Source: an uncultured Gammaproteobacteria bacterium (GTDB lineage: Bacteria; Patescibacteriota; Patescibacteriia; Patescibacteriales; UBA12465). From it: a stretch of 64,000 bases of DNA. Where the stretch lies: assembly GCA_964355275.1 (NCBI GenBank), contig CAYHCB010000001.1, forward strand, positions 99,424 through 163,423. Direction: 5' to 3'. Shown piece after piece: positions 3,327 to 32,674 of this stretch. The notes under the pieces were generated by a model. The model was not told the origin of the DNA, did not search any database, and saw only the letters and a list, made by a program, of their open reading frames with translations. The position numbers and the translations under genes were made by a program. Within the stretch, counting starts at the first letter, position 1, and the number at the start of each line of letters is the position of its first letter.

Positions 3327-3355
3327 ATATTAGTAGTCAAACAGGCAAAAGTCAA
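3327..3355 (-). promoter_or_regulatory. putative promoter of the PNP-family gene
   Basis: Minus strand TTGACT (3350-3355), 17-nt spacer, TAATAT (3327-3332). Confidence 0.4.
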
Positions 3356-3365
3356 ATAATTTTTA

Positions 3366-3393
3366 TTGACAATGCACCGATAAATGTTATAAT
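3366..3393 (+). promoter_or_regulatory. near-consensus extended -10 promoter of the RRM protein gene
   Basis: TTGACA (3366-3371), 16-nt spacer ending TGT, TATAAT (3388-3393). Confidence 0.6.
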
Positions 3394-3513
3394 AATTTTC
3401 GTAAGTATTCTAAAAAATATAGAAGTGTTATCACTTTCTATTTATTAACTAGGAAAAGGTCGTCTTACCTTTTTAAACATAAGTTATTTCCCGCTAAACG
3501 GAGATGACTAAGA

Positions 3514-3780
3514 ATGAAAACCATGAAGAAATTATTTGTTGGCGGACTATCTTGGGGCACTACTGATGAGTCCTTAGCTGCCGCTTTTTCCCAAGCAGGT
3601 GCTGTTTTATCCTCAGTCGTAATTAAAGATAAAATTACCCACCGATCAAAAGGCTTTGGTTTTGTTGAAATGACAAATGACGATGAAGCAGATGCTGCTA
3701 TCGCTATGTGGAACAATCAAGAAATTGATGGTCGCCGTGTTGTTGTAAACGAAGCTCGCCCTCTTGAAAAGAGATTCTAA
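3514..3780 (+). CDS. RRM-type RNA-binding protein
   Basis: RNP2 KLFVGGL and RNP1 KGFGFVEM motifs, 88 aa, GGAG upstream of the ATG. Confidence 0.9.
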   Translation: MKTMKKLFVGGLSWGTTDESLAAAFSQAGAVLSSVVIKDKITHRSKGFGFVEMTNDDEADAAIAMWNNQEIDGRRVVVNEARPLEKRF

Positions 3781-3831
3781 CTTTTTAAGAAAACTTCAGT
3801 CTAAAAAATTCATTGAAAAACATAGCTGAAT

Positions 3832-3870
3832 AAAAAAATACCATCCTCGAAAGAAAATGGTATTTTTTTT
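3832..3870. terminator. bidirectional Rho-independent terminator (RRM gene / iscU convergent)
   Basis: ATACCAT / ATGGTAT stem flanked by A7 and T8 runs. Confidence 0.75.
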
Positions 3871-3882
3871 AAATCTAAAAAA

Positions 3883-4266
3883 TTATTTTGATTTTACTTT
3901 TTTCTCATATTCTTCTATTACTTTCTTTAAACCTTCGGAAGCTAAAATAGAACAATGAATCTTTTGTTTTGGCAGACCACCGAGTTCATCAACAATTTCC
4001 TGCCATTTAAAATTTTTCGCTTCTTCAAGCGTCATGCCTTTAACTCGTTCAGTCATAATAGAAGCGGTAGCAATATTAGAAGCACAACCAAAAGATAAAA
4101 ATTTAATATCTTTAACTTTTCCATCTTTTACTTTTAAAGAAAAAGATAACTGATCGCCGCAAACCATATTACCAACATCGGCCACCGCATCAGGACTTTT
4201 TATTTCACCAATATTTTTAGGATGCAAGAAATGCTCAACTGTTTTTTTTGTATAATTAAGTGACAT
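3883..4266 (-). CDS. iscU: Fe-S cluster assembly scaffold, IscU/NifU U-type
   Basis: Three ligand motifs (VCGD, FGCASNIATAS, IHCSILA), 127 aa, downstream of a cysteine desulfurase. Confidence 0.9.
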   Translation of the reverse strand: MSLNYTKKTVEHFLHPKNIGEIKSPDAVADVGNMVCGDQLSFSLKVKDGKVKDIKFLSFGCASNIATASIMTERVKGMTLEEAKNFKWQEIVDELGGLPKQKIHCSILASEGLKKVIEEYEKKVKSK

Positions 4267-4270
4267 ATAT

Positions 4271-5425
4271 TTATTTTTTAATTGGCGTAAATTTTCGTAA
4301 ACGCGTAACTGTTTTTTTTAATTTTAAGATTGTATAATCAATTTCTTTTTTGCTAGTAAATTTACTAAGAGAAAAACGAATATTACTATTTAAATCATCA
4401 AGTGTCAAACCGATAGCTTCTAAAACATAAGAAGTTTTAAGATTATGGGCACTACAAGCTGAGCCTGTAGAAACGCAAATGCCTTTCATGGATAAATCCA
4501 TTAGAATTGCTTCCCCCTCGATTCGCGAAAATAAAATATTTAAGTTATTAGGCGTTCTGTATTCTAAGCTACCATTTAAACTAACTTCGGGAATTTCTTT
4601 TTTAATTCTAGCCCACATGTAATCTCTTAACTCTCGAACTTTAGATAGATATTCGGTTCTTTCCTGATATGCTAATTCTAAAGCGCTTACTAAGCCGACA
4701 ATACCAGGTAAATTATAAGTACCGGCGCGCAAACCATTTTCCTGCTCACCACCCATAATAAGTGGTTCGATTTTAACCGCTGGATTAACATAAGCTAAGC
4801 CAACCCCCTTGGGACCATGAAATTTATGGGCGCTTAAACTAGCAAAATCTAAACCTAAATCACTAATATCTATCTCTAAATAAGGAATAGATTGAACGAT
4901 ATCACTGTGAAAATAAGCCCCTTTACTATGAACCAATTTAGCGATTGTTTTTAAGTCCTGAATTGTACCAATTTCATTATTTACCGCCATAATTGAAACT
5001 AAAACGGTATCAGGGCGCAACATTTTTTCTAAAGCAATTAAATCAACTAATCCGCTAGGAGTTACGGGAACAATTTCTATTTCAAAACCTAATTTTTTTA
5101 ATTGCTTAGCGCTTTGCAAAACACAAGGATGTTCAATCGATGAAACAATTAAATGTTTACCTTTATCTTGATTAGCTAACATTACCCCTTTAATTATTAA
5201 ATTATTAGCTTCACTGGCACCGCTGGTAAAAACTATACCACGGGCTGGCGCTCCTAATAATTTAGCCACAGTATCTCTAGCTGACTCTAAAACCAAATTA
5301 TTTTTTTGCCCCATATAATGAATGGAGGAGGCATTTCCATAGTCCCCTATTAAATATGGCTTCATATTGGCCAAAACTCTAGCATCAAGCCGAGTGGTGG
5401 CCGCATTATCTAAATATATTTTCAT
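4271..5425 (-). CDS. iscS: cysteine desulfurase, NifS/IscS class I
   Basis: PLP-lysine motif SLSAHKFHGPKG, active-site loop STGSACS, SSIEHP. Confidence 0.92.
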   Translation of the reverse strand: MKIYLDNAATTRLDARVLANMKPYLIGDYGNASSIHYMGQKNNLVLESARDTVAKLLGAPARGIVFTSGASEANNLIIKGVMLANQDKGKHLIVSSIEHPCVLQSAKQLKKLGFEIEIVPVTPSGLVDLIALEKMLRPDTVLVSIMAVNNEIGTIQDLKTIAKLVHSKGAYFHSDIVQSIPYLEIDISDLGLDFASLSAHKFHGPKGVGLAYVNPAVKIEPLIMGGEQENGLRAGTYNLPGIVGLVSALELAYQERTEYLSKVRELRDYMWARIKKEIPEVSLNGSLEYRTPNNLNILFSRIEGEAILMDLSMKGICVSTGSACSAHNLKTSYVLEAIGLTLDDLNSNIRFSLSKFTSKKEIDYTILKLKKTVTRLRKFTPIKK

Positions 5426-8026: not shown

Positions 8027-8284
8027 TTAGGTTTTTGAAAGCGTTGATTTTTTTTCTGTTTTTGCGAACATTTTGTCAACGTTTTCCCGAACCAATTCCT
8101 CATACATTGAGGTAAGTTCGTCTTTTGTAACGCCAAATTCCTTCAACTCGTTGGCGGCGTTACCGATTTTGCGCTGATAATCGGCGCGATTTAATACCAA
8201 CTGTTTACTGGCGATGTCTTTTTTTAACATCAACAGGGCGATTTGTCCTTTTCTCTCTTCTGAGAGTTTCTTATTTTGGCTCAT
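8027..8284 (-). CDS. hypothetical small helical protein (85 aa)
   Basis: ORF with the best SD in the window (AAAGGAGG, 5 nt before the ATG) and its own promoter. No recognisable motif. Confidence 0.6.
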   Translation of the reverse strand: MSQNKKLSEERKGQIALLMLKKDIASKQLVLNRADYQRKIGNAANELKEFGVTKDELTSMYEELVRENVDKMFAKTEKKSTLSKT

Positions 8285-8371: not shown

Positions 8372-8400
8372 AAAAAACCACCCCTTCTAGGATGATTTTT
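8372..8400 (-). terminator. terminator after the hydrogenase operon
   Basis: Minus strand ATCATCC / GGGTGGT stem (2 G-U pairs) followed by TTTTTTG. Confidence 0.55.
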
Positions 8401-8413
8401 AATATTCTTCTTA

Positions 8414-10102
8414 TTATTTTTTAGCTTTAAAAGAGGTGTGAAGTACAGCTTTGCCTAAACCAATCTTTTTAACATAAGAAACGGCCGCCATTGCTTCTAA
8501 GTTTTCATGAGCTCGACGAACCTTTTGCCTGTTATCAATGGAATATAGCGCTGCCATTCGCATTTTTCTTGTTGCTAAAGACGCTGGGGCTGGTTGACCA
8601 CCACCACCAATACAACCACCAGGACAACTCATTACTTCGATATAATCATAATCACTTAAGTGATTTAAGACCTGAGAAATATTACCCAAACCATTTACTA
8701 CGGCGACCCTTAAATTGCGACCGGCAATCTTCACAATACTTTTTTTAATACCCAAAGTACCGCGAACATCTTTAAATTCTAATTTGGCTAAATTTTTCTT
8801 TTTTTCTAAATACCAAACAGCGGTACGCAATGCTGACTCCATTACTCCACCTGAGGCACCATAAATAGCTCCTGCGCCGCTACCATTATTCCAAATTAAA
8901 TCACCGGGTTTAGGACTAAGTTTCATAAAATCAATTTTTGATTCTTTCATCATTAAAGCAAATTCTCTAGTAGTGATGACAATATCTACTGGAGAGACAT
9001 CTTTTATTTTAAACTCTGATCGAGTAATTTCATACTTTTTAGCCGTACAAGGCATAACGGAGACAACTATAATATCCTTAGGATTAATGCCAATTTTAGC
9101 TGCCCAATAAGTTTTTATTACACCCCCTAAATGCATGTGTGGCGACCTAGCTGAAGTTAAGTGTGGAATAAGTTCTGGGTGTCGTGATTCAACATAACGA
9201 ACCCAAGCGGGGCAACAAGAAGTCATCATTGGAAAAATTGCCTTTTTATCTTCTAGTCTTTCAATTAATTCTTCAGCTTCAGTTATGGTTGTAATATCGG
9301 CTCCTAGATTAACATCAAAAACATAATTAAAACCTAATTTTTTAAGACCGGCGACTACCCGCCCAGTCATTTTATCATCATATTCGGCCCCAAATTCTTC
9401 ACCAATAGCGGCCCGAATTGAGGGAGCAAATTGAGCAATTATAATTTTATTTTTATTTTTTAAAGCTTTATAGACATCTGGATAAGAAATTTGTTCAGAG
9501 ATAGCATCAACCGGACAATGAGTAACGCATTGGCCACAGAAAGTACAAGGATTTTTAGTGGGCACAATTTCTTGATTAATCCCATGGCCTTTAAGCTCCA
9601 AACAATTTAATTTTTGTAATTTATTACAAGCTTCAAGGCATAAACGACAATCAATACATTGAGAGCCGTCAATTTCAATTGAAGGTGAAAAATGATATTT
9701 TTTACGATTAACCTTCCGCTCTAAAAACCTAGTTGACTTAACGCGATACTGCTTTACTAAAGTAAGCAAGGGGCAATTAAATCTTAATTTACAAGAAGCG
9801 CACTTTTCTACGTGCTCCGCAAATAATAACTCTAAGTTAGTTCGTCTTAAACGTTTTACTTTAGGGGTATCTAAAAATACCTCTAAATTATCTTGTGCCG
9901 GTGTCGAGCAAGCGGAAACAACCTGTCTCTTTGAATTATAAATTATTTCTACTAAACAAAGACGACAATTCCCTTTAACCGGAAAGTCGGGATGAAAACA
10001 CAAAGTAGGAATAAAAATATTATGCCTTTTAGCTACCTGTAAAACTGTTTCGCCAGGATTATAAACAAACTCCCGATTATTTATTTTTAGTATTTGCGTC
10101 AT
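8414..10102 (-). CDS. hydA: [FeFe] hydrogenase catalytic subunit (M3-type domain layout)
   Basis: H-cluster motifs TSCCPAW, MPCTAKKYE and EVMSCPGGCIGGGGQP. Also an N-terminal 2Fe-2S Cys set, HVEKCASCKLRFNC, and two CxxCxxCxxxCP motifs. Confidence 0.9.
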   Translation of the reverse strand: MTQILKINNREFVYNPGETVLQVAKRHNIFIPTLCFHPDFPVKGNCRLCLVEIIYNSKRQVVSACSTPAQDNLEVFLDTPKVKRLRRTNLELLFAEHVEKCASCKLRFNCPLLTLVKQYRVKSTRFLERKVNRKKYHFSPSIEIDGSQCIDCRLCLEACNKLQKLNCLELKGHGINQEIVPTKNPCTFCGQCVTHCPVDAISEQISYPDVYKALKNKNKIIIAQFAPSIRAAIGEEFGAEYDDKMTGRVVAGLKKLGFNYVFDVNLGADITTITEAEELIERLEDKKAIFPMMTSCCPAWVRYVESRHPELIPHLTSARSPHMHLGGVIKTYWAAKIGINPKDIIVVSVMPCTAKKYEITRSEFKIKDVSPVDIVITTREFALMMKESKIDFMKLSPKPGDLIWNNGSGAGAIYGASGGVMESALRTAVWYLEKKKNLAKLEFKDVRGTLGIKKSIVKIAGRNLRVAVVNGLGNISQVLNHLSDYDYIEVMSCPGGCIGGGGQPAPASLATRKMRMAALYSIDNRQKVRRAHENLEAMAAVSYVKKIGLGKAVLHTSFKAKK

Positions 10103-10118
10103 CTTTTTTAATAAATAA

Positions 10119-10871
10119 TTATATTTGTTTATCCTTTACTTCTTTTAAGCTTTTATAAAGCTGATAAAAGTAAACTATAAAATATGGAGCTAAAATAGCC
10201 CAGATAATATTAATTAAAACATTATAAGCAATAAAAATATTACTGCCCTCTGACATTTTATATACTGGCCAAGAAATAAAGGCATACACTAAAATAGCAA
10301 AAATTGAAACTAAAAATAAACGACCAAAAACTGACCAAAAATATCCTTTAACTAAGTCATAACTTCGCTCAACTGCCGAAAAAGGACGCTTATCTTCTAT
10401 TACCAGGATATAGGCGGCGAAACTATAATAAATTCCAAAAATTAAAGCTGGGATGATAAAAAGAAAGCCCCAAGCAATAATCAAAACCATCATTAACATG
10501 GAAACTCCTAAAAACTTTATAAAATATGGTTTAGCTTCTTCAAAATTATTTCTAGCTGGCGTAAAATTATTTTTAAGCAATAGAATGCTCGCGACCTTAG
10601 TCCTAATACTATAAACTATAGCTATATACAGACTGGCCACAAATAAACCAAAACCAATTAACGCGAGACTAAAGTTAACTAGTAATGAAGCTTTTTCCGC
10701 TAAACCAGTTATGTTGTAAGTAAAAAATAAAACTAGCACCACTAGTAAAGGAATAAGACCAGACAACCCGTAAAGAAAAACCATAATAAATTTTAATAAG
10801 TTTTTTCGATAGATTTCCCAGCTTTCTTTAAAAAGAGTGACTGATTTAATAAGCTTTTCTTTTTGATTCAT
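10119..10871 (-). CDS. polytopic membrane protein of unknown function (about 6 TM)
   Basis: 250 aa, almost entirely hydrophobic helices, embedded between the NuoF-like and HydA genes with 16-31 nt gaps. Confidence 0.65.
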   Translation of the reverse strand: MNQKEKLIKSVTLFKESWEIYRKNLLKFIMVFLYGLSGLIPLLVVLVLFFTYNITGLAEKASLLVNFSLALIGFGLFVASLYIAIVYSIRTKVASILLLKNNFTPARNNFEEAKPYFIKFLGVSMLMMVLIIAWGFLFIIPALIFGIYYSFAAYILVIEDKRPFSAVERSYDLVKGYFWSVFGRLFLVSIFAILVYAFISWPVYKMSEGSNIFIAYNVLINIIWAILAPYFIVYFYQLYKSLKEVKDKQI

Positions 10872-10902
10872 ATAGTTAAAGGGCGGTTTTTTAAATTAAC
10901 CG

Positions 10903-11934
10903 TTATTTTATTTTTAAAATGTTTTTATAATAACTTGATAATGGTAAAGCAACACTTTTCCCGTAAGAACAAAGACTCCCGTCCTTTAAAAGCTCTAAAA
11001 TATCCCAGAATTCTGGGCTATACTTTTTTTTAGCTAAAAATAATTCCAGCAATCTACTAGTTCCTTCACGACAAGGAGTGCACATTCCGCAAGAGCCATC
11101 TTTAAAAAAGTTAAGAAGACGACCAATTATTTCTTCTTGCTTATTATCAAACCAAGAATAAACAGTGATTGATCCGCTACCACTAACAGTTCTTTTCAGT
11201 TGAGTTGAATTTAAAAATTCCCCACAAATATCACCACCAACCTGAACAAAAAATTTACAAGAAGGAAAATTACCCGTTAATCGTAAGATATCTTCTATTT
11301 TCCAATCACCCGGTAAAGAATAAACACCAGGGCGCGATACCTCGCCGCTAATTGTATAAAACCTTTTAGAATCAAAATTATTATTTTTAATTAAAGCTAC
11401 TTGAAAAAAAGTTTCAACATTATTAATAATCGTTGGCTCGCCAAATAAACCACTATCTACTGGCAGCGGTGGTCTTAAACGCGGCTCCTTTCTTTTGCCC
11501 TCAATTATATTCAAAATTACTGTTTCTTCCCCGCTTAAATAACTTAAGACCTTAGGCTTAAGACTCCAGTGCCAAAAAATTGAGAGTGAAAGAAATTGAT
11601 GCTCGCCTAAAAGTTTATTTATTTTTTTGGCGTAAAGTTTATAATATTCATGATTTATAAAGCAGTAAATACCAGCTAAACGTTTAGGTCCTAGAGCTAA
11701 AACACACTCTTTTACTCCTTCAAGAACTAGGTTAGCGTGATGTTCTAAAATATAAGCATCTTTCTTTACTCCTGGCTCGCCTTCAGCAGCATTAATGACA
11801 ATATAAAAACCTGCTTTTTTATTTTTTTCTAAAGCACTTTTAACTCCTTGCCATTTTATAGCCACCGGAAAACCAGCGCCACCGCGCCCCCGTAATTCTA
11901 CTTTGTTTATCTTTGTGATTATATCACTACCCAT
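10903..11934 (-). CDS. NuoF-like flavoprotein subunit (NADH-binding, FMN, 4Fe-4S), short form
   Basis: GRGGAGFP, AAEGEPG, SGEETVILNIIEGKR..PR.RPP and SCGMCTPCREG plus a distal Cys. Only 343 aa. Confidence 0.85.
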   Translation of the reverse strand: MGSDIITKINKVELRGRGGAGFPVAIKWQGVKSALEKNKKAGFYIVINAAEGEPGVKKDAYILEHHANLVLEGVKECVLALGPKRLAGIYCFINHEYYKLYAKKINKLLGEHQFLSLSIFWHWSLKPKVLSYLSGEETVILNIIEGKRKEPRLRPPLPVDSGLFGEPTIINNVETFFQVALIKNNNFDSKRFYTISGEVSRPGVYSLPGDWKIEDILRLTGNFPSCKFFVQVGGDICGEFLNSTQLKRTVSGSGSITVYSWFDNKQEEIIGRLLNFFKDGSCGMCTPCREGTSRLLELFLAKKKYSPEFWDILELLKDGSLCSYGKSVALPLSSYYKNILKIK

Positions 11935-11943
11935 ATTTAATTT

Positions 11944-12672
11944 TTATCTGGCTGTCCAGCCACCGTCTACATAGATAACCTCACCTGTAACATATTTTGA
12001 TTCATCGCTACCTAAATATAAAGCTGCATGAGCAATATCATTTGGTTCGCCAACATAACCTAAGGGTGTTCCAGCTTTTACCATATTACTAAAAGCTTCA
12101 TTATTTAAAACATCGCGAGTCATACCGGTGGTGATAAAACCAGGGGCGATAGCGTTTACTCTAATGCCTAAAGAGGCTAAATCTAAAGCTGAGGCGTGAG
12201 TTAGTTGAACAACGCCACCTTTTGAAGCACAATAAGATACTGCTCCAGCTAAACCAACTTTACCTAAAATAGAGCTCATATTAATAATACTACCCTTAGT
12301 GCCTTGTTCTTTCATGACTCGAGCAGCCGCCCTTACTCCATAAAAAACTCCTGATAGGTTAACATTAATTGTTTTTAGCCAATTATCATCGTCAGCCTCT
12401 AAAACTCCTCCCAGTGAACCGATACCAGCATTATTTACCATTACGTCTAAATGACCAAACTTAGCAGTAGCGGCGCTAATTAAAGCATCTACTTGGACAC
12501 TGCTAGATACATCACACTTTACATAAATTGCCCTATCACTATTTACTTCAAAAGTATCTAAGATATCAGCATAAACAACTTGCGCTCCCTCGGCTAAATA
12601 TTTTTCTGCAATCGCTTTACCAATACCGGAGGCTGCCCCGGTTACAATAGCCACTTTATTTTCCATTCTCAT
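11944..12672 (-). CDS. short-chain dehydrogenase/reductase (FabG / glucose-1-dehydrogenase-like)
   Basis: TGAASGIG cofactor motif, NNAG, catalytic S...YxxxK (YCASK). Confidence 0.9.
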   Translation of the reverse strand: MRMENKVAIVTGAASGIGKAIAEKYLAEGAQVVYADILDTFEVNSDRAIYVKCDVSSSVQVDALISAATAKFGHLDVMVNNAGIGSLGGVLEADDDNWLKTINVNLSGVFYGVRAAARVMKEQGTKGSIINMSSILGKVGLAGAVSYCASKGGVVQLTHASALDLASLGIRVNAIAPGFITTGMTRDVLNNEAFSNMVKAGTPLGYVGEPNDIAHAALYLGSDESKYVTGEVIYVDGGWTAR

Positions 12673-12691
12673 ATAATTTTTGTTTAATTTT

Positions 12692-13705
12692 TTATTTTAT
12701 AAATTTTTTAAGATAGTTTGTTAGGTCAACTAAACGATTAGAGTAACCCCATTCGTTATCATACCAAGCCACAACCTTAAGCAAATCACCACCCACTAAA
12801 GCCGTTGATTTTAAATCAATGATTGAGCTGTGCGGATTGCCAACAATATCAGAAGAAACTAATTCTTCAGACGAAGCTTCTAATATACCCTTTAATTTAC
12901 CTTTAGCCGCTTTAATAAATTCCTCATTAACAGCCTCGATACTAGTTTTCTTATTTAGTAAAAAAGTAACATCACAAAGTGAACCAACTGGAACTGGGAC
13001 ACGTAAGGCCATACCATCAAATTTACCTTTTAAAGAAGGGATTGTTTCGGTAACAGCCACCGCCGCGCCGGTAGTTGTTGGTACAATATTTACCGCGGCA
13101 CTACGAGCTCGTCGTAAATCTTTATGAGGTCCATCAACTAAATTTTGATCAGCTGTATAAGCATGAACGGTAGACATTAAAGCTTTTTTTATACCAAACT
13201 TTTCTTTAATAACCATAGTCGCTGGTGCCAAACAATTAGTAGTACACGAGGCACAAGAAATAACATCATCACTTTTATTTAGTTTATCTTCATTTACTCC
13301 TAAAACAATTGTTTTACAGTCTTTACCAGGAGCCGATATTATTACTTTTTTAGCTCCAGCTGTAAGATGCGCACTCGCATCTTCTTTACCACGAAAACGA
13401 CCGGTGCATTCTAAGACAACATCTACTTTGAATTTTTTCCAAGGTAAAAGTAAGGGGTCTTTCTGAGAAAAAACAAAATACTTTTTACCATTTACAATTA
13501 GCGCATCCTTAGTATGACTAACTTTATGATGATATTTTCCGTAACAAGAATCATACTGCATTAAATGAGCTAAAGTAGCAGTATCAGTTAAGTCATTAAT
13601 CGCCACTACATTTAATCTTGGATGACTATCTAAAATAATCTTAAACGAGGCGCGGCCAATACGCCCAAAACCATTAATAGCCACATTAATTTTGCTGTTA
13701 AACAT
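12692..13705 (-). CDS. gap: glyceraldehyde-3-phosphate dehydrogenase, type I
   Basis: INGFGRIGR, active site SCTTNCLAP, WYDNEWGYS. Start moved to the internal ATG (MFNSKINVAING) because the 57-nt upstream extension contains the promoter. Confidence 0.95.
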   Translation of the reverse strand: MFNSKINVAINGFGRIGRASFKIILDSHPRLNVVAINDLTDTATLAHLMQYDSCYGKYHHKVSHTKDALIVNGKKYFVFSQKDPLLLPWKKFKVDVVLECTGRFRGKEDASAHLTAGAKKVIISAPGKDCKTIVLGVNEDKLNKSDDVISCASCTTNCLAPATMVIKEKFGIKKALMSTVHAYTADQNLVDGPHKDLRRARSAAVNIVPTTTGAAVAVTETIPSLKGKFDGMALRVPVPVGSLCDVTFLLNKKTSIEAVNEEFIKAAKGKLKGILEASSEELVSSDIVGNPHSSIIDLKSTALVGGDLLKVVAWYDNEWGYSNRLVDLTNYLKKFIK

Positions 13706-13725
13706 AGAAAAAAAATTATATATAA

Positions 13726-13734
13726 ATACTTTGA
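13726..13734 (-). promoter_or_regulatory. extended -10 element (TGTTATAAT) of the gap-hydrogenase operon
   Basis: Minus strand TGTTATAAT, about 20 nt upstream of the gap ATG at 13705. Confidence 0.45.
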
Positions 13735-13773
13735 TATTATAACATATTAGAAAGGCAAACAAAAATTTTAGAA

Positions 13774-13823
13774 TAAAAAAAGACTATCTATTTTGCTAAC
13801 GGCAAAGGTAGATAGTCTTTTTT
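13774..13823. terminator. bidirectional-looking terminator after the PSP1 gene
   Basis: 10-bp stem AGACTATCTA / TAGATAGTCT flanked by A7 and T6 runs. Confidence 0.7.
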
Positions 13824-16630: not shown

Positions 16631-18115
16631 TTATTGTTGATAAAACCCTTTTAAGCCCTGATTATAATCATTAACCATATTATTATAATTTGTAAGTTCG
16701 GCTCGATAAAGCTCTAAATCGCTATTATATTTAATAACACCTAAATTATATGTTTCTACTAAAGAATTATAAGCACTAATATTGCCACTTGCTTGGTAAG
16801 CACTAAGTTGAGTTTGTTGGGCACTTAGAATGCTCTGTTGGGCTGTCAGATTAGAATTTTTTTCTGCTAGCCCTATTTTTTGTGCTTCAATCCAAACATC
16901 TTTAGCTTGTAAGTCGGTAACTATTTTTTTAGTGTTTGCTATCCCCTGATAAACTAAACCAGTCGTTTTTTGAAATATTTCTATTTTACTTAAGTGAGAA
17001 ATATTAAATAAATTGCTCAAATTATCCTGAGCAGCTACGGCTTGTCCGTTAGAAATTGTTGGCGGGATAACTCCAACCGGAAAGTAATTAGTAGTTTCAA
17101 TATAACAATAACCTGAATTATTTATTGATTCACTTACAGGACAACTAATGCCTGCCGCTGAATGATTAGCATCAGGAAAATCTAAAATTGCGGCGCCATA
17201 GCCTAACTCACGTAAAACAGTTACCGCCAAAAAAGTTTTATCAGAACAGATACCAGAATTTTTATATAAAGTTTCGTAGGGATAATTAGGTTGCAAAGGA
17301 TTTTTGTTTAATTTAGCGCTATCATAAGGAATATACTGAATAAGAGCAAGTAAAAAATCGGCTGTTTGGTCTTTACTCCAAGAATGAGTAGCGGCTTCCT
17401 GCTTGCCATAATTTACTAAATAAGAAATAGAGGTGTCGCCACTTTTCTTGTTAAAAAAAATATTATAAAACTGTTCTCTAGCATTTACCGGCGGAGTATC
17501 ACCAGTATAGTAAAAAGCTTTAACGGCTTTCTCATATTCAGAATTTAAACTAGACCTAAGTGGTAAATCTAAATTAAAATTTTCTAATTTATAACGCCAG
17601 ACTAAATTAGTTTTATAATCACTAAAACCAACAGCAGGTGCAACGTTACTGGTCGTAACTGGCGCAGCTAAGGCAATACTAATTTTACTTAAATCACTAT
17701 TTGTAATCCCTAAACCTTGAGCTCTAAATAATAACCAAGCATCCATCGGTCTTCCGAGATAATGCCAACGTCTATTTAAATCAACATAATAAGCTTCACC
17801 ATGACTTTGAGGTCTAAGATATAAACGACCACGTGCCCAAACTGGAGCGCCCTGGCTCCAACTAGCAAATTCTTTTTCAGAAATACCTAAACTTAAAGAA
17901 CGCATTAAACTATAAGCGTCATCAGGTTTTCCCAGATAATATCTTTTATTATTTTGCGGGTTAACGTACCAAGCTTCTCCTTTACTTTGAACTTGTAATA
18001 AAATACGGCCAGATAAATTTGCGTCTAAAGTTGCTGCTAGAGCTGAGTTAACGCTAATTAGACTACTTATAAAAATAGCCCCTAGTAATAATTTATATTT
18101 GATTTTAAAAATCAT
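16631..18115 (-). CDS. secreted protein with tandem N-terminal repeats, transglutaminase-like Cys-His core and C-terminal coiled coil
   Basis: Signal peptide ending SALA. Two ~50-aa repeats (GEAWYVNP...YYLGKP / GEAYYVDL...HYLGRP), then GICSDK...ANHSAAG...YIETT, and a YN-rich helical tail. Confidence 0.6.
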   Translation of the reverse strand: MIFKIKYKLLLGAIFISSLISVNSALAATLDANLSGRILLQVQSKGEAWYVNPQNNKRYYLGKPDDAYSLMRSLSLGISEKEFASWSQGAPVWARGRLYLRPQSHGEAYYVDLNRRWHYLGRPMDAWLLFRAQGLGITNSDLSKISIALAAPVTTSNVAPAVGFSDYKTNLVWRYKLENFNLDLPLRSSLNSEYEKAVKAFYYTGDTPPVNAREQFYNIFFNKKSGDTSISYLVNYGKQEAATHSWSKDQTADFLLALIQYIPYDSAKLNKNPLQPNYPYETLYKNSGICSDKTFLAVTVLRELGYGAAILDFPDANHSAAGISCPVSESINNSGYCYIETTNYFPVGVIPPTISNGQAVAAQDNLSNLFNISHLSKIEIFQKTTGLVYQGIANTKKIVTDLQAKDVWIEAQKIGLAEKNSNLTAQQSILSAQQTQLSAYQASGNISAYNSLVETYNLGVIKYNSDLELYRAELTNYNNMVNDYNQGLKGFYQQ

Positions 18116-18122
18116 AATTTAA

Positions 18123-18797
18123 TTAATCAACCAGTGTGATGAATAAATCTTCCTCTGGTGGTTGCGGTAAATGGTCTACATTATTAATAAAATTAATCCT
18201 AACATACCCATCTCGATCAATTACAATTTTTGATAATGACGATTGAAAAACTTCTTGTGATAAAAAACCAATAACATCAGCATTTAAAATGCCAGTAAGA
18301 ACGGACTTAATAAAGTTACCATGAGTAAACAGGGCTACTGTTTTACCTTGATTATTCTTAAAAATATCATGAAGCAGGCGACGAGCCTTAGCTTGCATAA
18401 CATTAAGTTGTTTGTCTAAGACTAGATAATCTTTAACTTTACTGGGACGCTTTGTTTCGCTGGTATTAAAATAAGGAATTCTAGACCAATCCCACCAATC
18501 AATTTCATTTAAGCGTGACTCTGTTTCAATTTTGATATTTAATATTTTGGCTAGTGGGGCGGCTGTTTCTTGAGCGCGCTTTAACTCACTGGCGTACAAA
18601 CGATTAATTTTTAATTTTACCAAACGTTCTGTCAAAAAGTGCAATTGCTCATTACCAAAAGAAGAAAGAGGCATATTAAAATCACCTATTTTTTTTTCTA
18701 AAGTATAATCTGGATGACAATGTCTGACTAAATAAATTACCGTATAAGGGCGACGAGTCTTGGGCCGCAACTTAACATAAGGGTTTTGATAAGACAT
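18123..18797 (-). CDS. histidine phosphatase (phosphoglycerate mutase) family protein
   Basis: RHC motif (LVRHCHP) and a second catalytic His (FTHGNF). Confidence 0.8.
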   Translation of the reverse strand: MSYQNPYVKLRPKTRRPYTVIYLVRHCHPDYTLEKKIGDFNMPLSSFGNEQLHFLTERLVKLKINRLYASELKRAQETAAPLAKILNIKIETESRLNEIDWWDWSRIPYFNTSETKRPSKVKDYLVLDKQLNVMQAKARRLLHDIFKNNQGKTVALFTHGNFIKSVLTGILNADVIGFLSQEVFQSSLSKIVIDRDGYVRINFINNVDHLPQPPEEDLFITLVD

Positions 18798-18801
18798 GAA
18801 C

Positions 18802-19398
18802 TTAATCCTTAAGATTAGCTAAGGCAAAATCCCAGTTGGCTAAGTGTTCAAGAATTCCGCTAACATAATCAGCGCGACGATTTTGATAATCTAAATAGTA
18901 GGCGTGTTCCCAGACATCAATTACAAAAAGTGGTCTTTGTCCGTGAACTAAGGGTGTATCAGCATTAGCTGTTTTTACAATTTTTACATTAGAATCTTCT
19001 TTAACTAACCAGACCCAACCACTACCAAATTGGGATAGTGCTGCCCCCTTAAGATCTTCGATCATTTTTTCCCAGGTGCCAAAAGAATGGATTACAGAAT
19101 TTTTTAACTCTACTGAAACAGACATTTCTTTACTGGCAGGTTTTAAGCATTTCCAAAAAAATTCATGATTATAAGCTTGAGCAGCATTATTAAATATCGC
19201 CTCCTTACCGTCTCGTCCAGCAGTCTTTAAAACGACATGTTCTAAGGAATCATTTTCCATTGGTGTACCAGCAATTAATTTATTTAAATTATCAACATAA
19301 GCCTGGTGGTGCTTGCCGTAATGATATTCTAAGGTTTTTTCTGATAAATGAGGCTCTAGTTCATTTGGGTTAAAAGGTAAACTTGGTAGAGTAAACAT
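18802..19398 (-). CDS. Fe/Mn superoxide dismutase
   Basis: Motifs HHxKHH-like (YHYGKHHQAYV) and DVWEHAYYLDYQNRR. Confidence 0.95.
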   Translation of the reverse strand: MFTLPSLPFNPNELEPHLSEKTLEYHYGKHHQAYVDNLNKLIAGTPMENDSLEHVVLKTAGRDGKEAIFNNAAQAYNHEFFWKCLKPASKEMSVSVELKNSVIHSFGTWEKMIEDLKGAALSQFGSGWVWLVKEDSNVKIVKTANADTPLVHGQRPLFVIDVWEHAYYLDYQNRRADYVSGILEHLANWDFALANLKD

Positions 19399-19562: not shown

Positions 19563-20597
19563 TTATTTCTTAAATGATTTTTTAGCGGCTAACTGACCAC
19601 AAGCGGCAGAAATTTCTCCGCCATAAGAATGACGAGTTGTGACGTTTACCTCCGCATCCTCTAAAATTTTCTTAAATTTAGCAATCTTTTCTTCAGTTGA
19701 AGCCTGAAAACGACCAGTTGGATTATAAGGAATAAGATTAACCATATAAAGCGGTTTAGTCATTAAACCGGCCAGTAGTTTCGCATCATTTTCACTATCA
19801 TTTATATCTTTAATCATCAAATATTCAAACATTACCTTACGACCAGTTTTTCTAATATAATCATCAACAGCCGAAAAAACTTTAGCCAAAGGGTACTTAT
19901 CAGCAATTGGCATATAACGACGTCTTAAAATATCAGCGGGAAAATGTAAAGATACGGCTAAATTAAGTTGTAATTTTTCACCGCCAATTTTTATAATACC
20001 TTCACAAACGCCAGCCGTTGAGACTGATAAACGACGAGAACCAAAATTAAAACTTTCTGAATCATTTAACCACTTAAGAGCTTTAATTACTTCTGGATAA
20101 TTTAAAAATGGTTCACCCATGCCCATAAAAACTATATTATCAACCTTCTCTGCGCCGCCCTCTTTTTTAAGCTCACGCATAAAAAATAAAACCTGCTCCA
20201 CAATTTCGTGTGCTTTTAGGTTACGAGTAAAACCAAGTTGACCGGTAGCACAAAAAGAACAGGCCAAAGGACAGCCCACCTGAGAAGAAACGCAAACCGT
20301 ATTCCTGTTCCCTTTTTGACGAATCAAAACCGCCTCTACTTTTTCTCCATCTTCTAAAGTGATTAAAGCCTTATGAGTTGGTTCTTTACCGATAGCTTTA
20401 ACTACCTCGGCAGGAATAGTAAGAGGACAAGATTCATTCAAACGTTCGCGTAAATCTTTAGGAAGATTAGTCGCGTCATTCCAGTCTTCTATTAAGTCAA
20501 TAAAAACGGCTCTATCTATTTGTTGATGACGGAACTTTGGTTCATTTATAATTATTTGATGTAAAATTGATAAATTCATAGGAGAAGAGACTAACAC
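19563..20597 (-). CDS. rlmN: 23S rRNA/tRNA (adenine-C2)-methyltransferase RlmN (radical SAM)
   Basis: CPLACSFCATG radical-SAM motif, GMGEP, C-terminal AACGQL. Confidence 0.93.
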   Translation of the reverse strand: MLVSSPMNLSILHQIIINEPKFRHQQIDRAVFIDLIEDWNDATNLPKDLRERLNESCPLTIPAEVVKAIGKEPTHKALITLEDGEKVEAVLIRQKGNRNTVCVSSQVGCPLACSFCATGQLGFTRNLKAHEIVEQVLFFMRELKKEGGAEKVDNIVFMGMGEPFLNYPEVIKALKWLNDSESFNFGSRRLSVSTAGVCEGIIKIGGEKLQLNLAVSLHFPADILRRRYMPIADKYPLAKVFSAVDDYIRKTGRKVMFEYLMIKDINDSENDAKLLAGLMTKPLYMVNLIPYNPTGRFQASTEEKIAKFKKILEDAEVNVTTRHSYGGEISAACGQLAAKKSFKK

Positions 20598-21743: not shown

Positions 21744-23033
21744 CTATTTAATTACAAAAGGAAAGACTGCATATTCAGAGGTTCCTTCGAGTTCCGCTTC
21801 AATTGCCATTAAACGATTATACTTAGCCGTTCTTTCACTTCTAGCTGGTGCACCGGTTTTAATCTGACCAGTACCCATGGCCACCACCAAGTCAGCAATA
21901 AAAGTATCTTCTGTTTCACCGCTACGATGAGATACAACGGCGGTCATGCCACTGGCACGAGCCTCATAAATAGTAGCTACTGTTTCTGTTAGAGTACCAA
22001 TTTGATTTAATTTAATCAAAATTGAATTCGTGGTTTTTTCAGAAATACCTCTTTCTAAACGTTTAACATTTGTGACGTATAAATCGTCCCCAACTACCTG
22101 AACCTCACGATTAAAAGCTTCGGTAAAATTTTTAAATCCTGTCCAATCATCTTCTGCTAGCACATCTTCAAAAGAATAAATCGGGTAACGCTCAGCTAAA
22201 CCTTTATAGAAATTAATTAGTTCATCGCTACTTAAAACTTTATTTTCTTTTTTAAGATGATATACTCCATCTTTAAAAAATTCTGTGGCCGCCGAATCAA
22301 TCCCAAAGACAATATCCTTACCAAGATTATAACCAGCCTCAGTCACCGCTTCTGATAATAAACGAAAGGCTTCTTCATTAGATGACACTGCTGGGGCAAA
22401 GCCACCTTCATCACCAACAGTAAGACCATAGCCTTTATTTTTTAAAACTTTTTTTAAAGTTTGATAAATCTCGGCACACATTCTGACAGCTTCAGTGATA
22501 GATTTAGCGCCCACTGGCAAAATCATATACTCTTGAATATCAGTGGCCCAATTAGCATGTTTGCCACCATTTAAAACATTCATCATCGGAATTGGCATTT
22601 GATAAGTACCGGAAAATGATTGATTAAATTTTGTTAAATATTTATACAATGGCATATTTAAACCAGCCGCTGCCGCTCTAGCAACTGCCAAAGAAACGCC
22701 CAAAATAGCATTAGCACCTAAATTGGCTTTATTTTCGCTACCATCTAAAGCAATCATGATTTCATCAATTTTTCTTTGATTACTAGCATCTTGACCAACT
22801 AGCGCGGGAAATATTTTATTTTCAATATTTGAAATAGCTAAATTAACGGAAGCGCCACCATAAATATGCTGATCATTATCACGAAGTTCAACTGCTTCAT
22901 AACTACCGGTAGAAGCGCCACTAGGAACAGCGGCCCAACCAATCGCACCATTTTCTAAAATAACAGTAGCTGAAAGCGTTGGGTTACCACGGGAATCCAG
23001 TATTTGCAAAGCTTTGATAGATTGTATTTTCAT
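21744..23033 (-). CDS. eno: enolase
   Basis: Full-length canonical enolase (SHRSGETED, IKLNQIGT). Confidence 0.97.
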   Translation of the reverse strand: MKIQSIKALQILDSRGNPTLSATVILENGAIGWAAVPSGASTGSYEAVELRDNDQHIYGGASVNLAISNIENKIFPALVGQDASNQRKIDEIMIALDGSENKANLGANAILGVSLAVARAAAAGLNMPLYKYLTKFNQSFSGTYQMPIPMMNVLNGGKHANWATDIQEYMILPVGAKSITEAVRMCAEIYQTLKKVLKNKGYGLTVGDEGGFAPAVSSNEEAFRLLSEAVTEAGYNLGKDIVFGIDSAATEFFKDGVYHLKKENKVLSSDELINFYKGLAERYPIYSFEDVLAEDDWTGFKNFTEAFNREVQVVGDDLYVTNVKRLERGISEKTTNSILIKLNQIGTLTETVATIYEARASGMTAVVSHRSGETEDTFIADLVVAMGTGQIKTGAPARSERTAKYNRLMAIEAELEGTSEYAVFPFVIK

Positions 23034-23073: not shown

Positions 23074-24102
23074 CTAATCAATAATATAGGTCTTATAAAT
23101 ATTCTCCTCGGTACAAGCGATAACTTTTTTAAGTAATTTAACTGCCTCCAGTGAGTAATCTCCCACGGTTGTTTCATCAGATAACATTACCATATCAGCG
23201 CCATCAAAAACAGCGTTAGCAATATCACTAATTTCAGCCCGAGTAGGATGAGGGTTCTTTATCATTGAAGTCATTACTTGAGTAGCTAAAATTGTTGGTT
23301 TATTGTGCCAATGAGCGTGTCTAATTAAATTCTTTTGGATAATTGGTAACTCCTCAATTGGCACCTCAATACCTAAATCGCCACGAGCCACCATAATAAC
23401 ATCAGAAGCGGTGATTATTTTATCAATATTTTTAAGAGCAATCCCCCGTTCAATTTTAGAAATTATTTTTACTTTACTTTTTTTACCCAACAAAGTTCTA
23501 AGTCTAGTTACATCATTAGCAGTTTGTACAAAAGATAAAGCGACATAATCCATTCCAGCTTTAATGCCAAATTTTAAATCTTTAATATCTTTAGCAGTTA
23601 GGCCACCTTTTTTCATGTTCGTGTCAGGAACATTAATGCCCTTATTAGAACTTAAAACGCCACCATTAATAACTTTAGCAGTAATTACCTTATTTTTTAC
23701 ATCTTGAACCATGAGTTCAATAGCACCATTACATAAAAATAAAGGATGATTTTTCTTTATATCTTTATATAAATCGCTACTATCAATTGGAATAATGCCC
23801 CCATTTTTATAAGGTAGCTTAGAATAAGTAAATTGATAAATCTCATCAACATGTAAAGTGATGCCAGCTTCAGGAAATTTACCGACTCTAATTCGTGGTC
23901 CTTGTAAATCCAGCATTAAAGAAACCTTACGCTCACTATCATTATTAAAAACATCGATAATTTTTTTAATTTTTTTATATTGATCATAGGTAGCATGAGA
24001 AAAATTAACTCTTACCATATCAACGCCATTTTTCATAAGAGCGGTTAAAGCTTCTTCTGATTCTGATTTAGGGCCAATAGTGGCCACTATTTTTGTGTTC
24101 AT
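23074..24102 (-). CDS. pyk: pyruvate kinase lacking the C-terminal (allosteric) domain
   Basis: TKIVATIGP, RVNFSHA, MVARGDLGIEVP and MLSDETTVG. Ends about 20 aa after the last A-domain motif, at 342 aa. Confidence 0.9.
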   Translation of the reverse strand: MNTKIVATIGPKSESEEALTALMKNGVDMVRVNFSHATYDQYKKIKKIIDVFNNDSERKVSLMLDLQGPRIRVGKFPEAGITLHVDEIYQFTYSKLPYKNGGIIPIDSSDLYKDIKKNHPLFLCNGAIELMVQDVKNKVITAKVINGGVLSSNKGINVPDTNMKKGGLTAKDIKDLKFGIKAGMDYVALSFVQTANDVTRLRTLLGKKSKVKIISKIERGIALKNIDKIITASDVIMVARGDLGIEVPIEELPIIQKNLIRHAHWHNKPTILATQVMTSMIKNPHPTRAEISDIANAVFDGADMVMLSDETTVGDYSLEAVKLLKKVIACTEENIYKTYIID

Positions 24103-25326: not shown

Positions 25327-27330
25327 TTATTGAACCAGACCAGAATTATTAAAACTAGCAATATCATCATCTTCTAATTTAGTAGTTTTTGAATTAATTT
25401 TTTTATCAAGGACTGATTTAGTGTCAGAATCAATGGCGCTGACGTTTGAACCAGAAAGCAAAACCAATAAACTATTACGTTGGCTTTCATTTGGCGTAAC
25501 ACTAATATTAAATTCTGCCTGAGCTTTATAAGTAGAAACTGGCAAAATACCAATATTCCAAATAACCGAATGGCTAGCACTATCAAAAATTAAATTACCG
25601 GTTGAGATTTGGATACCATCATTAAATGAGACGTAATCTGGCAATTTAGAGATTACTTTTGTATCGCTGAGTTCATGAAGATTATTTTCAATTTTCCAAT
25701 ACACCTTAAGGCTGGTTTTTTCATTTACTTTTGGCGGCAGTGGCCCAGAACCAACTGGGGTATTATTTTCATCAAAATAAAGAACTTTTTCAGTTAGACT
25801 TAAATCACTATTAATTTTAGTCATTATATTATTACTCTTACTATCATTTAAGCCGCCCTGGCGATTATTAACATTAAATTGCGCATAACTTTGGATAGTG
25901 AAACTTTTACCTAAATCACTATCATTATAAGGTCTAACAGCAATTGAAAAATCAATCACCCCTTCCTCTCCTGGATCTAAGGAGCTTAAATCTGGAATCT
26001 GTTCTTTAGTCCAGGTAATTGTATTTTCACCTAAGATTCCTTTTTCAACATTTTTAAAACTAGACCAGTCTAAAAAATCACCCTTTAAAGCAACCATAAT
26101 AGCCACATCACTTAGCGGTCCGTCACTTTTATTAGAGTAAGTTAAAGAATAATTTAAAGTGTCAGAAAAGTTAGCAGTGTTATCATTTTTACTACCATTT
26201 AAAATTAAAGTTAAATTTAAGTTACTATTCATTACATTAAGCCCCACAGTTTTTTCTGCAAAAGTATATGACTTTCCATTTTCCATTTTTTTACTTAACT
26301 TAATAGTAATAGATTGATTATCATCAACCTTCTTAGTAACTTTATAATATACCGGTAAACGATAAGTCCCGTCACTAGCTATTAAATTACGCACACCCCA
26401 TAGTAAAGTCGTCTTTTTATCAACTATTAAACTTGGATCGGTAGTAGATGCTGTAGTACTAGCTGAACCCGGTGTTGTCTGCGGATTTATTAAAATAATA
26501 TTTTCCGGAAACATAAAAGAAACATCAAAATCATCTAAAAAATTACTTTTTACATTAGTAAAAACTAAATCTATTTGACCTTCTTCACCAACTAAAGCAG
26601 CATTGGCATATTCAAAACCTAAATCAAAGCCTAAATCATTAACTAAAGTTGAAGCAACTATCTCTTTTTTAAATTCGCTAGAAAGCTCCCCAGGCTGATA
26701 ACTAAGGCTAGCAATAATTAAACTAGCGGTATCTTTGTTAGAAACTAGTTTTCCTTTTACTAAAATATTAGACTCACCACCGATAAGCAAAGCCGGTAAA
26801 CTAAAATAATTTTGTGAAGCTGATCCCTGAATTGCCTCTAAGCCAGGGCCAGAAACCTCGGAAACTATAAAATTATCAGGATATTTAAATTCTAAACGCA
26901 AAGAGTTTAAATTAAACTTACTACGATTCTTATAATGCAGAGTATAAACAAACTCTTCTCCAGCCTTAACTTGCTCAGGAGCATTTATAGTAAAATCTAC
27001 CAAGGAAGCGTCCAGTGATTGATTAGAAAAATAAAAATAAAAACCATAACCTAAAACAAGCAACACCGCCACCACAAATAATTTTTTAATAATTGATACT
27101 AAGACTGAACCTTTTTCGTGTTTCATGTGAGACACATCAACTAAATCTCCAGCTTTATCACGATAAATTTCTGATAAATTATCGTCGATTTCTTCTTGAC
27201 GAGCTTCTTTTTTAACCGCCCTTTCAAAAATTTTGACCTGCTCTTCACTGGGTACCGGTCTTTTTATAAAAACTGGCGCAACTTGACGACTGGAAATTTT
27301 TTTAGGTTTATTTTTGTTATCAATTATCAT
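25327..27330 (-). CDS. single-pass membrane protein with repeated beta-sandwich (DUF11/CARDB-like) domains
   Basis: Charged N-terminal tail and one TM (LFVVAVLLVLGYGFYFYF). Then 3-4 repeats of the pattern G-x-x-hydrophobic-x-Y-x-hydrophobic-x-Y/F-x-N. Confidence 0.6.
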   Translation of the reverse strand: MIIDNKNKPKKISSRQVAPVFIKRPVPSEEQVKIFERAVKKEARQEEIDDNLSEIYRDKAGDLVDVSHMKHEKGSVLVSIIKKLFVVAVLLVLGYGFYFYFSNQSLDASLVDFTINAPEQVKAGEEFVYTLHYKNRSKFNLNSLRLEFKYPDNFIVSEVSGPGLEAIQGSASQNYFSLPALLIGGESNILVKGKLVSNKDTASLIIASLSYQPGELSSEFKKEIVASTLVNDLGFDLGFEYANAALVGEEGQIDLVFTNVKSNFLDDFDVSFMFPENIILINPQTTPGSASTTASTTDPSLIVDKKTTLLWGVRNLIASDGTYRLPVYYKVTKKVDDNQSITIKLSKKMENGKSYTFAEKTVGLNVMNSNLNLTLILNGSKNDNTANFSDTLNYSLTYSNKSDGPLSDVAIMVALKGDFLDWSSFKNVEKGILGENTITWTKEQIPDLSSLDPGEEGVIDFSIAVRPYNDSDLGKSFTIQSYAQFNVNNRQGGLNDSKSNNIMTKINSDLSLTEKVLYFDENNTPVGSGPLPPKVNEKTSLKVYWKIENNLHELSDTKVISKLPDYVSFNDGIQISTGNLIFDSASHSVIWNIGILPVSTYKAQAEFNISVTPNESQRNSLLVLLSGSNVSAIDSDTKSVLDKKINSKTTKLEDDDIASFNNSGLVQ

Positions 27331-27341
27331 AATTTTTTTAA

Positions 27342-31055: not shown

Positions 31056-31070
31056 GATTAAATAAATAAA

Positions 31071-32600: not shown

Positions 32601-32621
32601 ATGTCTATTTTATCATATTTA

Positions 32622-32658: not shown

Positions 32659-32674
32659 TTGTTTAAAAGATAAT

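Follow-up and report, generated by a model that had tools for sequence, protein, structure and literature searches.

Several described enzymes join an [FeFe] hydrogenase, HydA, to a flavoprotein of the NuoF type. In the bifurcating HydABC complexes of Thermotoga maritima, Acetobacterium woodii and Thermoanaerobacter kivui (group A3), the flavoprotein subunit HydB has an N-terminal [2Fe-2S] domain and a C-terminal domain with two [4Fe-4S] clusters, and a separate HydC completes the enzyme; HydC and these two HydB domains are implicated in bifurcation by the HydABC structures. By contrast, Hyd1ABC of Syntrophomonas wolfei and the Hyd-NuoE-NuoF complex of anaerobic fungi go from NADH to H2 via a NuoF-type subunit carrying flavin mononucleotide (FMN) and a [4Fe-4S] cluster, without the extra clusters of bifurcation. 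Both need a separate, co-purifying NuoE/HydC [2Fe-2S] subunit (for NuoE in the fungal complex, see PMC13556243). The 'dimeric' HydAB of Syntrophus (Losey et al., PMC7311640) is made from two genes, uses NADH as its sole donor, takes no ferredoxin and works at low H2 pressure only; its HydB, of about 585 residues, has a NuoE/HydC-like domain at its N-terminus (residues 15-152). Here we describe a 64-kb stretch of DNA (contig CAYHCB010000001.1, positions 99,424 to 163,423, hereafter the window) in which, as in Syntrophus, hydA stands together with the gene of a NuoF-type flavoprotein. This flavoprotein, however, has only 343 residues, lacks such an N-terminal domain, and no NuoE/HydC subunit is encoded near the pair.

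Two further comparisons help to place the locus. The NuoE-NuoF-NuoG part of complex I (Nqo2-Nqo1-Nqo3) has the same flavoprotein fold and cofactor sites (template modelling scores of about 0.83-0.86), whereas the protein considered here is some 50 residues shorter at the N-terminus, has no NuoE nearby, and would have an H-cluster as its acceptor, not a quinone. DPANN archaea, for their part, have group A [FeFe] hydrogenase clusters with an uncharacterised protein of four to six helices, 'hyd6TM', beside hydA (Greening et al. 2024, PMC11216029). These clusters resemble the present one in belonging to small-genome symbionts, in their adjacent diaphorase, in the membrane protein next to hydA and in that conventional maturases are mostly missing. 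They differ in that the A3 clusters are described with both HydB and HydC, and the likeness of hyd6TM to the six-helix protein found here is one of description only. In the searchable literature on hydrogenases of Patescibacteria and the candidate phyla radiation, the coverage of which is incomplete, we found no account of this two-gene form, and Beam et al. (2020) make no mention of NuoF or hydrogenase.

A short flavoprotein paired with a group A hydrogenase

Five ORFs (open reading frames) follow one another on the minus strand, in the order gap, a short-chain dehydrogenase/reductase (SDR) gene, the NuoF-like gene, the gene of a protein with about six transmembrane (TM) helices, and hydA; profile searches with Pfam and NCBIfam back the identity of all five. 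HydA has the three signatures of the H-cluster, L1, L2 and L3, as TSCCPAW (residues 294-300), MPCTAKKYE (350-358) and EVMSCPGGCIGGGGQP (489-504), and matches Fe_hyd_lg_C of Pfam at 8.7e-85. Its accessory part comprises four N-terminal Cys of a [2Fe-2S] site, aligned with those of T. kivui and A. woodii HydA1, the motif HxxxCxxCxxxxxC of a His-ligated [4Fe-4S] cluster (97-110) and two CxxCxxCxxxC motifs for two [4Fe-4S] clusters; together with the Fer2_4 and NADH-G_4Fe-4S_3 domains, this is the accessory-cluster set of an M3 enzyme. The protein reaches 449.1 bits against TIGR02512 (cutoff 405.95), and its top NCBIfam model is that of the NADH-dependent group A6, at 614 bits, below the cutoff of 765. 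The best matches in PDB are T. kivui HydA1 (437 bits) and A. woodii HydABC (428 bits), with CpI at 387. Because the N-terminus of HydA is NuoG-like, as seen in its Pfam, NCBIfam and PDB matches alike, the route used in complex I, from FMN to the N3 cluster and on to a [2Fe-2S] cluster, is the natural model for the entry of electrons.

The flavoprotein keeps the motifs GRGGAGFP (16-23), AEGEPG (50-55) and SCGMCTPCREG (281-291), plus C322. This preserves the FMN site (GRGGA), the NAD(H) site (EGEPG..KD and GEE) and the four Cys of a [4Fe-4S] cluster; retention of GEE presumably means NADH rather than NADPH, as we read the mutagenesis of NuoF. An AlphaFold2 model (pLDDT 87.8) superposes on NuoF, HydB, HoxF and FdsB chains with template modelling scores of 0.82-0.88. 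The nearest solved relatives are A. woodii HydB (140 bits) and Thermus Nqo1, with an alignment that covers residues 154-513 of 599 in the former and 52-373 in the latter. Since this alignment spans the core of HydB only, the protein has neither the [2Fe-2S] domain at the N-terminus nor the 2x[4Fe-4S] domain at the C-terminus; any NuoE-like domain and about 25 residues of internal loops are missing as well. With 171.1 bits against TIGR01959 (cutoff 558.65; model positions 36-401 of 410), the protein is not a NuoF equivalog, and public annotation knows it only as 'NADH-ubiquinone oxidoreductase-F iron-sulfur binding region domain-containing protein'.

Relatives of this short form, 329-367 residues long, number well over one hundred, and those that carry a name are almost all Patescibacteria, Falkowbacteria included; at species level the lengths are 301-369 residues, with a median of 344. 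In 79 species-level sequences the FMN loop, EGEPG..KD and GEE vary little or not at all; K58, Y132, C282, C285 and C322 are invariant and C288 is found in 78, these four Cys being the only conserved ones in the family. The first residues of the protein correspond to residue 52 of Nqo1 or 154 of HydB, so that throughout the family the extension which partnered homologues have at the N-terminus has been deleted. Bifurcating beta subunits have been assigned a signature (in T. maritima HydB numbering) of Ala or Glu at 232, Met234, Phe367 and GGPSG at 427-431, against Thr or Ser at 232, Lys, Ser or Ala at 234, Tyr at 367 and no GGPSG in non-bifurcating ones (Losey et al., PMC7311640). All 79 short proteins have Lys at the position of Met234 and Tyr at that of Phe367, and they have GGxxxG, never GGPSG, so that three of the four features fit the non-bifurcating class; the Tyr near FMN and the lack of GGPSG are shared with Syntrophus HydAB.

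The proteins of the window were mapped onto 80 related loci from species-representative genomes, mostly labelled Falkowbacteria, Patescibacteria or Parcubacteria, and gene order was counted there. Titles such as 'uncultured Gammaproteobacteria', Planctomycetota and Flavobacterium were set aside as probably unreliable taxonomy; gene order and homologues match the Patescibacteria loci. Of the 77 loci that could be evaluated, 76 have HydA as the next gene after the short NuoF. In the lone exception (L011, 11020-13348) 2.3 kb without a long ORF separate nuoF from the contig end, which an assembly artefact or a repeat region might explain. The gap gene stands directly upstream of the pair in 57 of 67 evaluable loci, while the SDR is present in 10 of the 80 and the membrane protein in 27, so the five-gene set is not a conserved unit. 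The conserved core is nuoF-hydA, usually led by gap, and the five-gene arrangement is one lineage's elaboration.

The search for the missing partner went beyond the pair itself. Neither a NuoE-type domain (PF01257) nor HydE, HydF or HydG was found among window ORFs of at least 100 residues covered by the Pfam scan or by the precomputed Pfam calls for the identical locus in public assemblies; shorter ORFs were covered by a six-frame search with Nqo2, aimed at NuoE only. The probes were Thermus Nqo2, identical to chain 2 of PDB entry 2fug, and a hidden Markov model that combines Nqo2 with the mitochondrial 24-kDa subunits NUHM (Yarrowia) and NDUFV2 (mammalian); as a query, Nqo2 alone finds the HydC subunits of hydrogenases in PDB at 1e-20 to 1e-23. 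The window and 90 loci together make up 1.45 Mb, with 12,631 six-frame ORFs; in this set neither phmmer with Nqo2 nor the model returned anything at E<1, and none of some 80 genomes has an ORF resembling NuoE closer than about 10 kb to the pair. The contig of a related strain, reached via the first gene of the window, has neither NuoE nor a maturase in 10 kb. A radical-SAM gene at 19563-20597, considered as hydE, proved RlmN-like instead, and a pattern search for the NuoE-type site (CxxxxC...CxxxC) returned only small 2x[4Fe-4S] ferredoxins, none of them thioredoxin-like. Among PDB matches nearly every solved NuoF-type complex also has a NuoE-type chain or fused domain (hydrogenase, Nfn, Stn and formate dehydrogenase entries 7q4v, 7p5h, 8a6t, 9bov, 7t2r, 8oh5, 9n5u, 6vw7, 6tg9, 9wxb, 5xf9 and those of complex I), the formate dehydrogenase 7e5z being the one NuoF-type entry without a NuoE match at the threshold of the Nqo2 search. 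To our knowledge, in characterised systems the NuoE-type gene is either adjacent or fused.

An initial annotation, made from the letters of the window alone, had described much of this correctly: the three H-cluster motifs and accessory Cys motifs of HydA, the three NuoF motifs in an ORF of 343 residues, and the local lack of a thioredoxin-like [2Fe-2S] protein. It had further proposed a stripped-down NAD(H)-linked hydrogenase tied to the NADH-producing step of glycolysis. The conserved pair, its FMN, NAD(H) and [4Fe-4S] core, the absence of a local NuoE and the frequency of gap support that proposal in part, whereas the SDR and the membrane protein have to be taken out of the conserved unit.

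How should the pair be classed? The HydABC complexes are the closest solved relatives of both its proteins, and share the NuoG-like HydA N-terminus; yet HydC is missing nearby, as are the additional domains of HydB and the Met, Phe and GGPSG of bifurcating enzymes. With the non-bifurcating class the pair shares a NuoF-type subunit, with FMN, an NADH site and an N3-type [4Fe-4S] cluster, encoded next to hydA, but one defining feature of that class, the NuoE/HydC-like module, separate or fused, which all characterised members possess, is not found locally. On these grounds the pair is best seen as a variant and not as a new class.

The reading we lean towards, with slightly better than even confidence, is that nuoF and hydA encode an NADH:proton oxidoreductase that does not bifurcate and has two subunits, a minimal flavoprotein of the NuoF type and a group A HydA of the M3 type. 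Glyceraldehyde-3-phosphate dehydrogenase, the product of the first gene of the unit, would convert NAD+ into NADH, the hydride of which would pass to FMN on the short NuoF. Electrons would then leave the flavin singly via the one N3-type [4Fe-4S] cluster of this protein, to follow the NuoG-like N-terminal [2Fe-2S]/[4Fe-4S] chain of HydA down to the H-cluster, where protons would become H2, and no NuoE/HydC-type [2Fe-2S] subunit would take part. We infer complex formation, this electron path, the direction of catalysis and the co-transcription of the genes. As with the Syntrophus enzyme, NADH is proposed to be the sole donor, with no role for ferredoxin and activity at low H2 pressure only. NADH-driven H2 formation is feasible below about 60 Pa H2, and the pressures measured for the Syntrophus enzyme were 2-40 Pa (PMC7311640). 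Because the reaction is favourable only at such very low pressure, the cell would depend on neighbours or hosts that consume H2. The pair probably lets it shed glycolytic NADH as H2, with a smaller set of parts than in any enzyme of this kind yet characterised.

If the short NuoF does work alone with HydA, no NADH-dependent hydrogenase known would be smaller. The pair would also amount to a natural experiment on the NuoE/N1a [2Fe-2S] module, whose role continues to be debated for complex I as well as for HydABC: should the genome encode no NuoE at all, this module would be dispensable, though it is kept in every characterised NuoF-containing enzyme that we found. There would follow a concrete account of how ultra-small fermenters re-oxidise glycolytic NADH and of their need for H2-consuming partners, and a compact NADH-to-H2 module would be attractive for engineering. 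Automated classifiers would assign the pair to group A3 on account of its adjacent hydB and hydA, and surveys that class hydrogenases by a neighbouring NuoF-like gene probably count these enzymes as 'bifurcating group A3', which would misstate their energetics. A broader proposal, which we put forward tentatively and hold to be somewhat doubtful, is that Patescibacteria, and possibly some DPANN, run a true two-subunit NADH:H+ oxidoreductase with a NuoF core of 340 residues and no NuoE in the genome, in some cases tethered by a 6-TM protein that has no solved fold relative, and maybe matured without HydEFG.

Objections and alternatives

Several observations weigh against a two-subunit NADH:proton oxidoreductase. 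Among solved proteins, HydA is by a small margin most similar to the HydA subunits of bifurcating complexes, and position 232 of the short flavoprotein is Val, Ile or Leu, which fits neither the bifurcating nor the non-bifurcating pattern. NuoF subunits are generally made together with NuoE, which puts the stability of a lone core in some doubt. For NuoE, the sequence scanned amounts to the 64 kb of the window plus some 20 kb from each related genome. Nor does the window account for maturation: no hydE, hydF or hydG is seen in it. In the most divergent loci gap does not adjoin the pair. Finally, five relatives (Table 1) have a gene for a small 2x[4Fe-4S] ferredoxin (69-82 residues) downstream of HydA, at a distance of 0.3-1.3 kb, and in a sixth (L083, 5522-10633) pyruvate:ferredoxin oxidoreductase and ADP-forming acetyl-CoA synthetase come directly after HydA. 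Since genes of this kind adjoin the pair in six relatives, ferredoxin may be a donor too.

It is for this last reason that a role of ferredoxin is the main rival explanation. HydA would be fed mainly by reduced ferredoxin, as clostridial CpI is, and the short NuoF would be a second port on the NAD(H) side, which would make the whole a dual-donor enzyme, a ferredoxin:NAD+ oxidoreductase or a minimal confurcating enzyme. The CpI-like M3 architecture of HydA and its kinship with the HydA of bifurcating HydABC agree with this, as do the ferredoxin and pyruvate:ferredoxin oxidoreductase genes just mentioned and a ferredoxin of 57 residues that a closely related contig encodes some 10 kb away from nusG. 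But HydC is not encoded near the pair, the N- and C-terminal iron-sulfur domains of HydB are absent, the Met and Phe of bifurcating enzymes are replaced by Lys and Tyr, and GGPSG is lacking. Moreover, the window itself contains no ferredoxin gene and no gene for such an oxidoreductase, and the adjacency concerns 6 of 80 loci only. We consider this explanation unlikely, while giving it real weight.

A comparably low probability attaches to the idea that inherited packing without functional meaning explains why gap stands next to the pair, and explains the five-gene 'operon' as a whole, only nuoF-hydA being functional. The block rpsB-tsf-ricT-gap-nuoF-hydA-cca-ppi is indeed syntenic across the main clade, gap is detached in the most divergent pairs, and the SDR and the membrane protein are dispensable. 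Tight co-directional packing is, furthermore, the default of this genome, 22 of the 47 same-strand spacers of the window being of 31 nt or less. Such packing was for this reason dropped as evidence for an operon, and the case for a unit rests on comparison across relatives. That comparison tells against mere packing: the spacer between gap and nuoF has a median of 93 nt (interquartile range 33-218), well below the 232 nt that is the median between ricT and gap, and the linkage of gap survives where ricT or cca is not adjacent (L066, L080, L090). It recurs, this time with pgk, in a locus labelled Woesearchaeota (L071, region 3343-4533), where the order is gap-nuoF-hydA-pgk. Strong terminators, in addition, bracket exactly the segment from gap to hydA.

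That the enzyme is a canonical three-part one, with a NuoE/HydC-like subunit encoded elsewhere in the genome, seems to us improbable. The extent of the scan leaves room for it, and solved NuoF-type complexes carry, except for 7e5z, a NuoE-type chain or fused domain in the same entry. However, no gene for such a subunit lies within 10 kb in some 80 genomes, the N-terminal extension of partnered homologues is deleted throughout the family, and small genomes tend to hold partner genes together. Just as improbable is an uptake enzyme that would oxidise environmental or host H2 to make NADH: H2-dependent NAD+ reduction has been measured for the Syntrophus and fungal enzymes, such enzymes are reversible in vitro, and H2 is present in the anoxic groundwater and sediment from which many of these organisms were obtained, but the linkage to gap, joined in relatives by pgk or by pyruvate oxidation and acetate formation, fits fermentative disposal of NADH, and the window encodes no obvious large NADH sink.

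Boundaries and companions of the pair

The window has a G+C content of about 33%, and 50 of its 57 genes lie on the minus strand; the identical locus is present in several public metagenome assemblies. Within the five-gene unit the intergenic gaps are, in order, 19, 9, 31 and 16 nt, whereas the outer ones are 130 nt upstream and 129 nt downstream. The hairpin that follows ricT folds at -20.4 kcal/mol (z -8.0), with none of 200 shuffles equally stable, and the one that follows hydA at -12.7 kcal/mol (z -4.7), so that two good terminators bracket the five genes; the interior of the five coding regions gives weak hairpin matches of 5-7 bp only. Ahead of gap lies an extended -10-like element, TGTTATAAT, which is plausible as the promoter of the unit; the motif occurs five times in the window for 2.2 expected, which is statistically unremarkable. 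Set against these data, the initial annotation was right about five co-directional ORFs 9-31 nt apart and about the hairpin with its T-run after hydA; the stronger hairpin after ricT it did not mention. Its extended -10, put at 13726-13734, has to be moved by ten bases and is not rare in the window. Of its claim that the genes form one operon, the bracketing hairpins speak in favour, and the tight packing turns out to be weak evidence.

Beyond the terminator of hydA, an ORF of 85 residues (8027-8284) has a promoter-like site of its own (TTGACT-17-TAGAAT, with TG), and its ribosome-binding site, AAGGAGG, is strong; the ORF matches no family and is present in the closest relatives only. Unlike this ORF, the five genes of the unit have AT-rich leaders without a Shine-Dalgarno match.

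The first gene, gap, encodes a type I enzyme that scores 423.8 bits against TIGR01534, above the equivalog cutoff of 367.2, and has NGFGRIGR, AIND and SCTTN (153-157, with the catalytic Cys). Its longest ORF reaches a TTG at 13762; as the gene callers of public assemblies use the form of 337 residues, a start at the ATG is likely. A few kb upstream, on the same strand, lie genes of lower glycolysis: a His_Phos_1 protein resembling phosphoglycerate mutase (18123-18797), enolase (21744-23033) and pyruvate kinase (23074-24102). In relatives, the pair repeatedly sits among fermentation genes (L071, L083).

The SDR has TGAASGIG, NNAG, YCASK and VVYADI, and with them the classical TGxxxGxG/NNAG/YxxxK set. 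It passes a single NCBIfam cutoff, that of the 'glucose 1-dehydrogenase' subfamily NF005559. The Asp that follows the second beta strand (in VVYADI) we take to mean a preference for NAD, and the protein is probably a further NAD(H)-linked dehydrogenase, added in this lineage.

As for the membrane protein, an iterative jackhmmer search of the related loci places its family between nuoF and hydA only. Two of its loops are strongly conserved and would, by the positive-inside rule, face the cytoplasm. The AlphaFold2 model is of good quality (pLDDT 90.3), and a fold search of PDB with it gave no significant structural relative; a word-based search for homologues returned close relatives only, none of them named. 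The protein is probably a membrane tether or scaffold for the soluble pair, again a lineage-specific addition. In divergent loci without gap and without this protein, a different membrane ORF, of about 170-200 residues, comes directly after HydA. Its members share a motif, ..TG(P/S)(I/L/V)VNA.., and have sub-threshold Pfam matches (E 0.002-0.01) to the S component of ECF transporters; on this ground it might import a vitamin such as an FMN precursor.

Table 1. Coordinates of the features discussed. Positions are those of the window, or, after a locus label, those of the related locus.
Feature	Position	Strand	Basis or remark
HydA, M3-type group A [FeFe] hydrogenase, 562 aa	8414..10102	-	TIGR02512, Fe_hyd_lg_C, motifs
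Membrane protein, ~6 TM helices, 250 aa, no Cys or His	10119..10871	-	Sub-threshold GPDPase_memb, UPF0259 and YciC matches
Short NuoF/HydB-like flavoprotein, 343 aa	10903..11934	-	Pfam Complex1_51K + NADH_4Fe-4S
SDR, classical short-chain dehydrogenase/reductase, 242 aa	11944..12672	-	adh_short_C2, 1.9e-67
gap, type I NAD-dependent glyceraldehyde-3-phosphate dehydrogenase, 337 aa	12692..13705	-	TIGR01534, Pfam Gp_dh_N + Gp_dh_C
Extended -10-like element TGTTATAAT	13736..13744	-	31 nt upstream of the gap ATG
Terminator-like hairpin + U7 after the upstream gene ricT	13776..13823	-	5' boundary of the unit
Terminator-like hairpin + T-run after hydA	8373..8400	-	12-bp stem; 3' boundary of the unit
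Ferredoxin genes near HydA	L025:11418-11663, L027:13019-13246, L030:13187-13393, L031:13186-13416, L082:14819-15064		
Alternative membrane ORF after HydA	L078:4693-5301, L084:12689-13216, L086:2769-3392, L088:2838-3428, L089:9934-10482		

Other genes of the window

Two ribosomal-protein genes at 1122-2365 were recognised only through homology to annotated genes in related loci. In the contig of a closely related strain with an identical NusG (L091, 11897-12829), an integrase gene (rve) comes after rplA where the window has other genes, which points to a strain-level rearrangement there. A protein of 494 residues without a significant Pfam match (16631-18115) is kept between His_Phos_1 and rpsB in most related loci, and an Fe/Mn superoxide dismutase is encoded at 18802-19398.

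Farther along, a cell-surface cluster (25327-33706) comprises a protein of 667 residues, one of 835 residues (DUF4012), a glycosyltransferase and a protein of 509 residues without a family, as well as a protein of 343 residues that joins sigma-70 region 4 with a HARE-HTH domain. A small cupredoxin-like protein (60613-61017, plus strand) adjoins a P-type ATPase of 910 residues (61080-63812), the exact sequence of which is not in the public gene index. At 55346-56878 lies the gene of a GH3-family protein (acyl-acid amido synthetase type); such proteins are known above all from plants, and to meet one in a reduced bacterial genome seems unusual.

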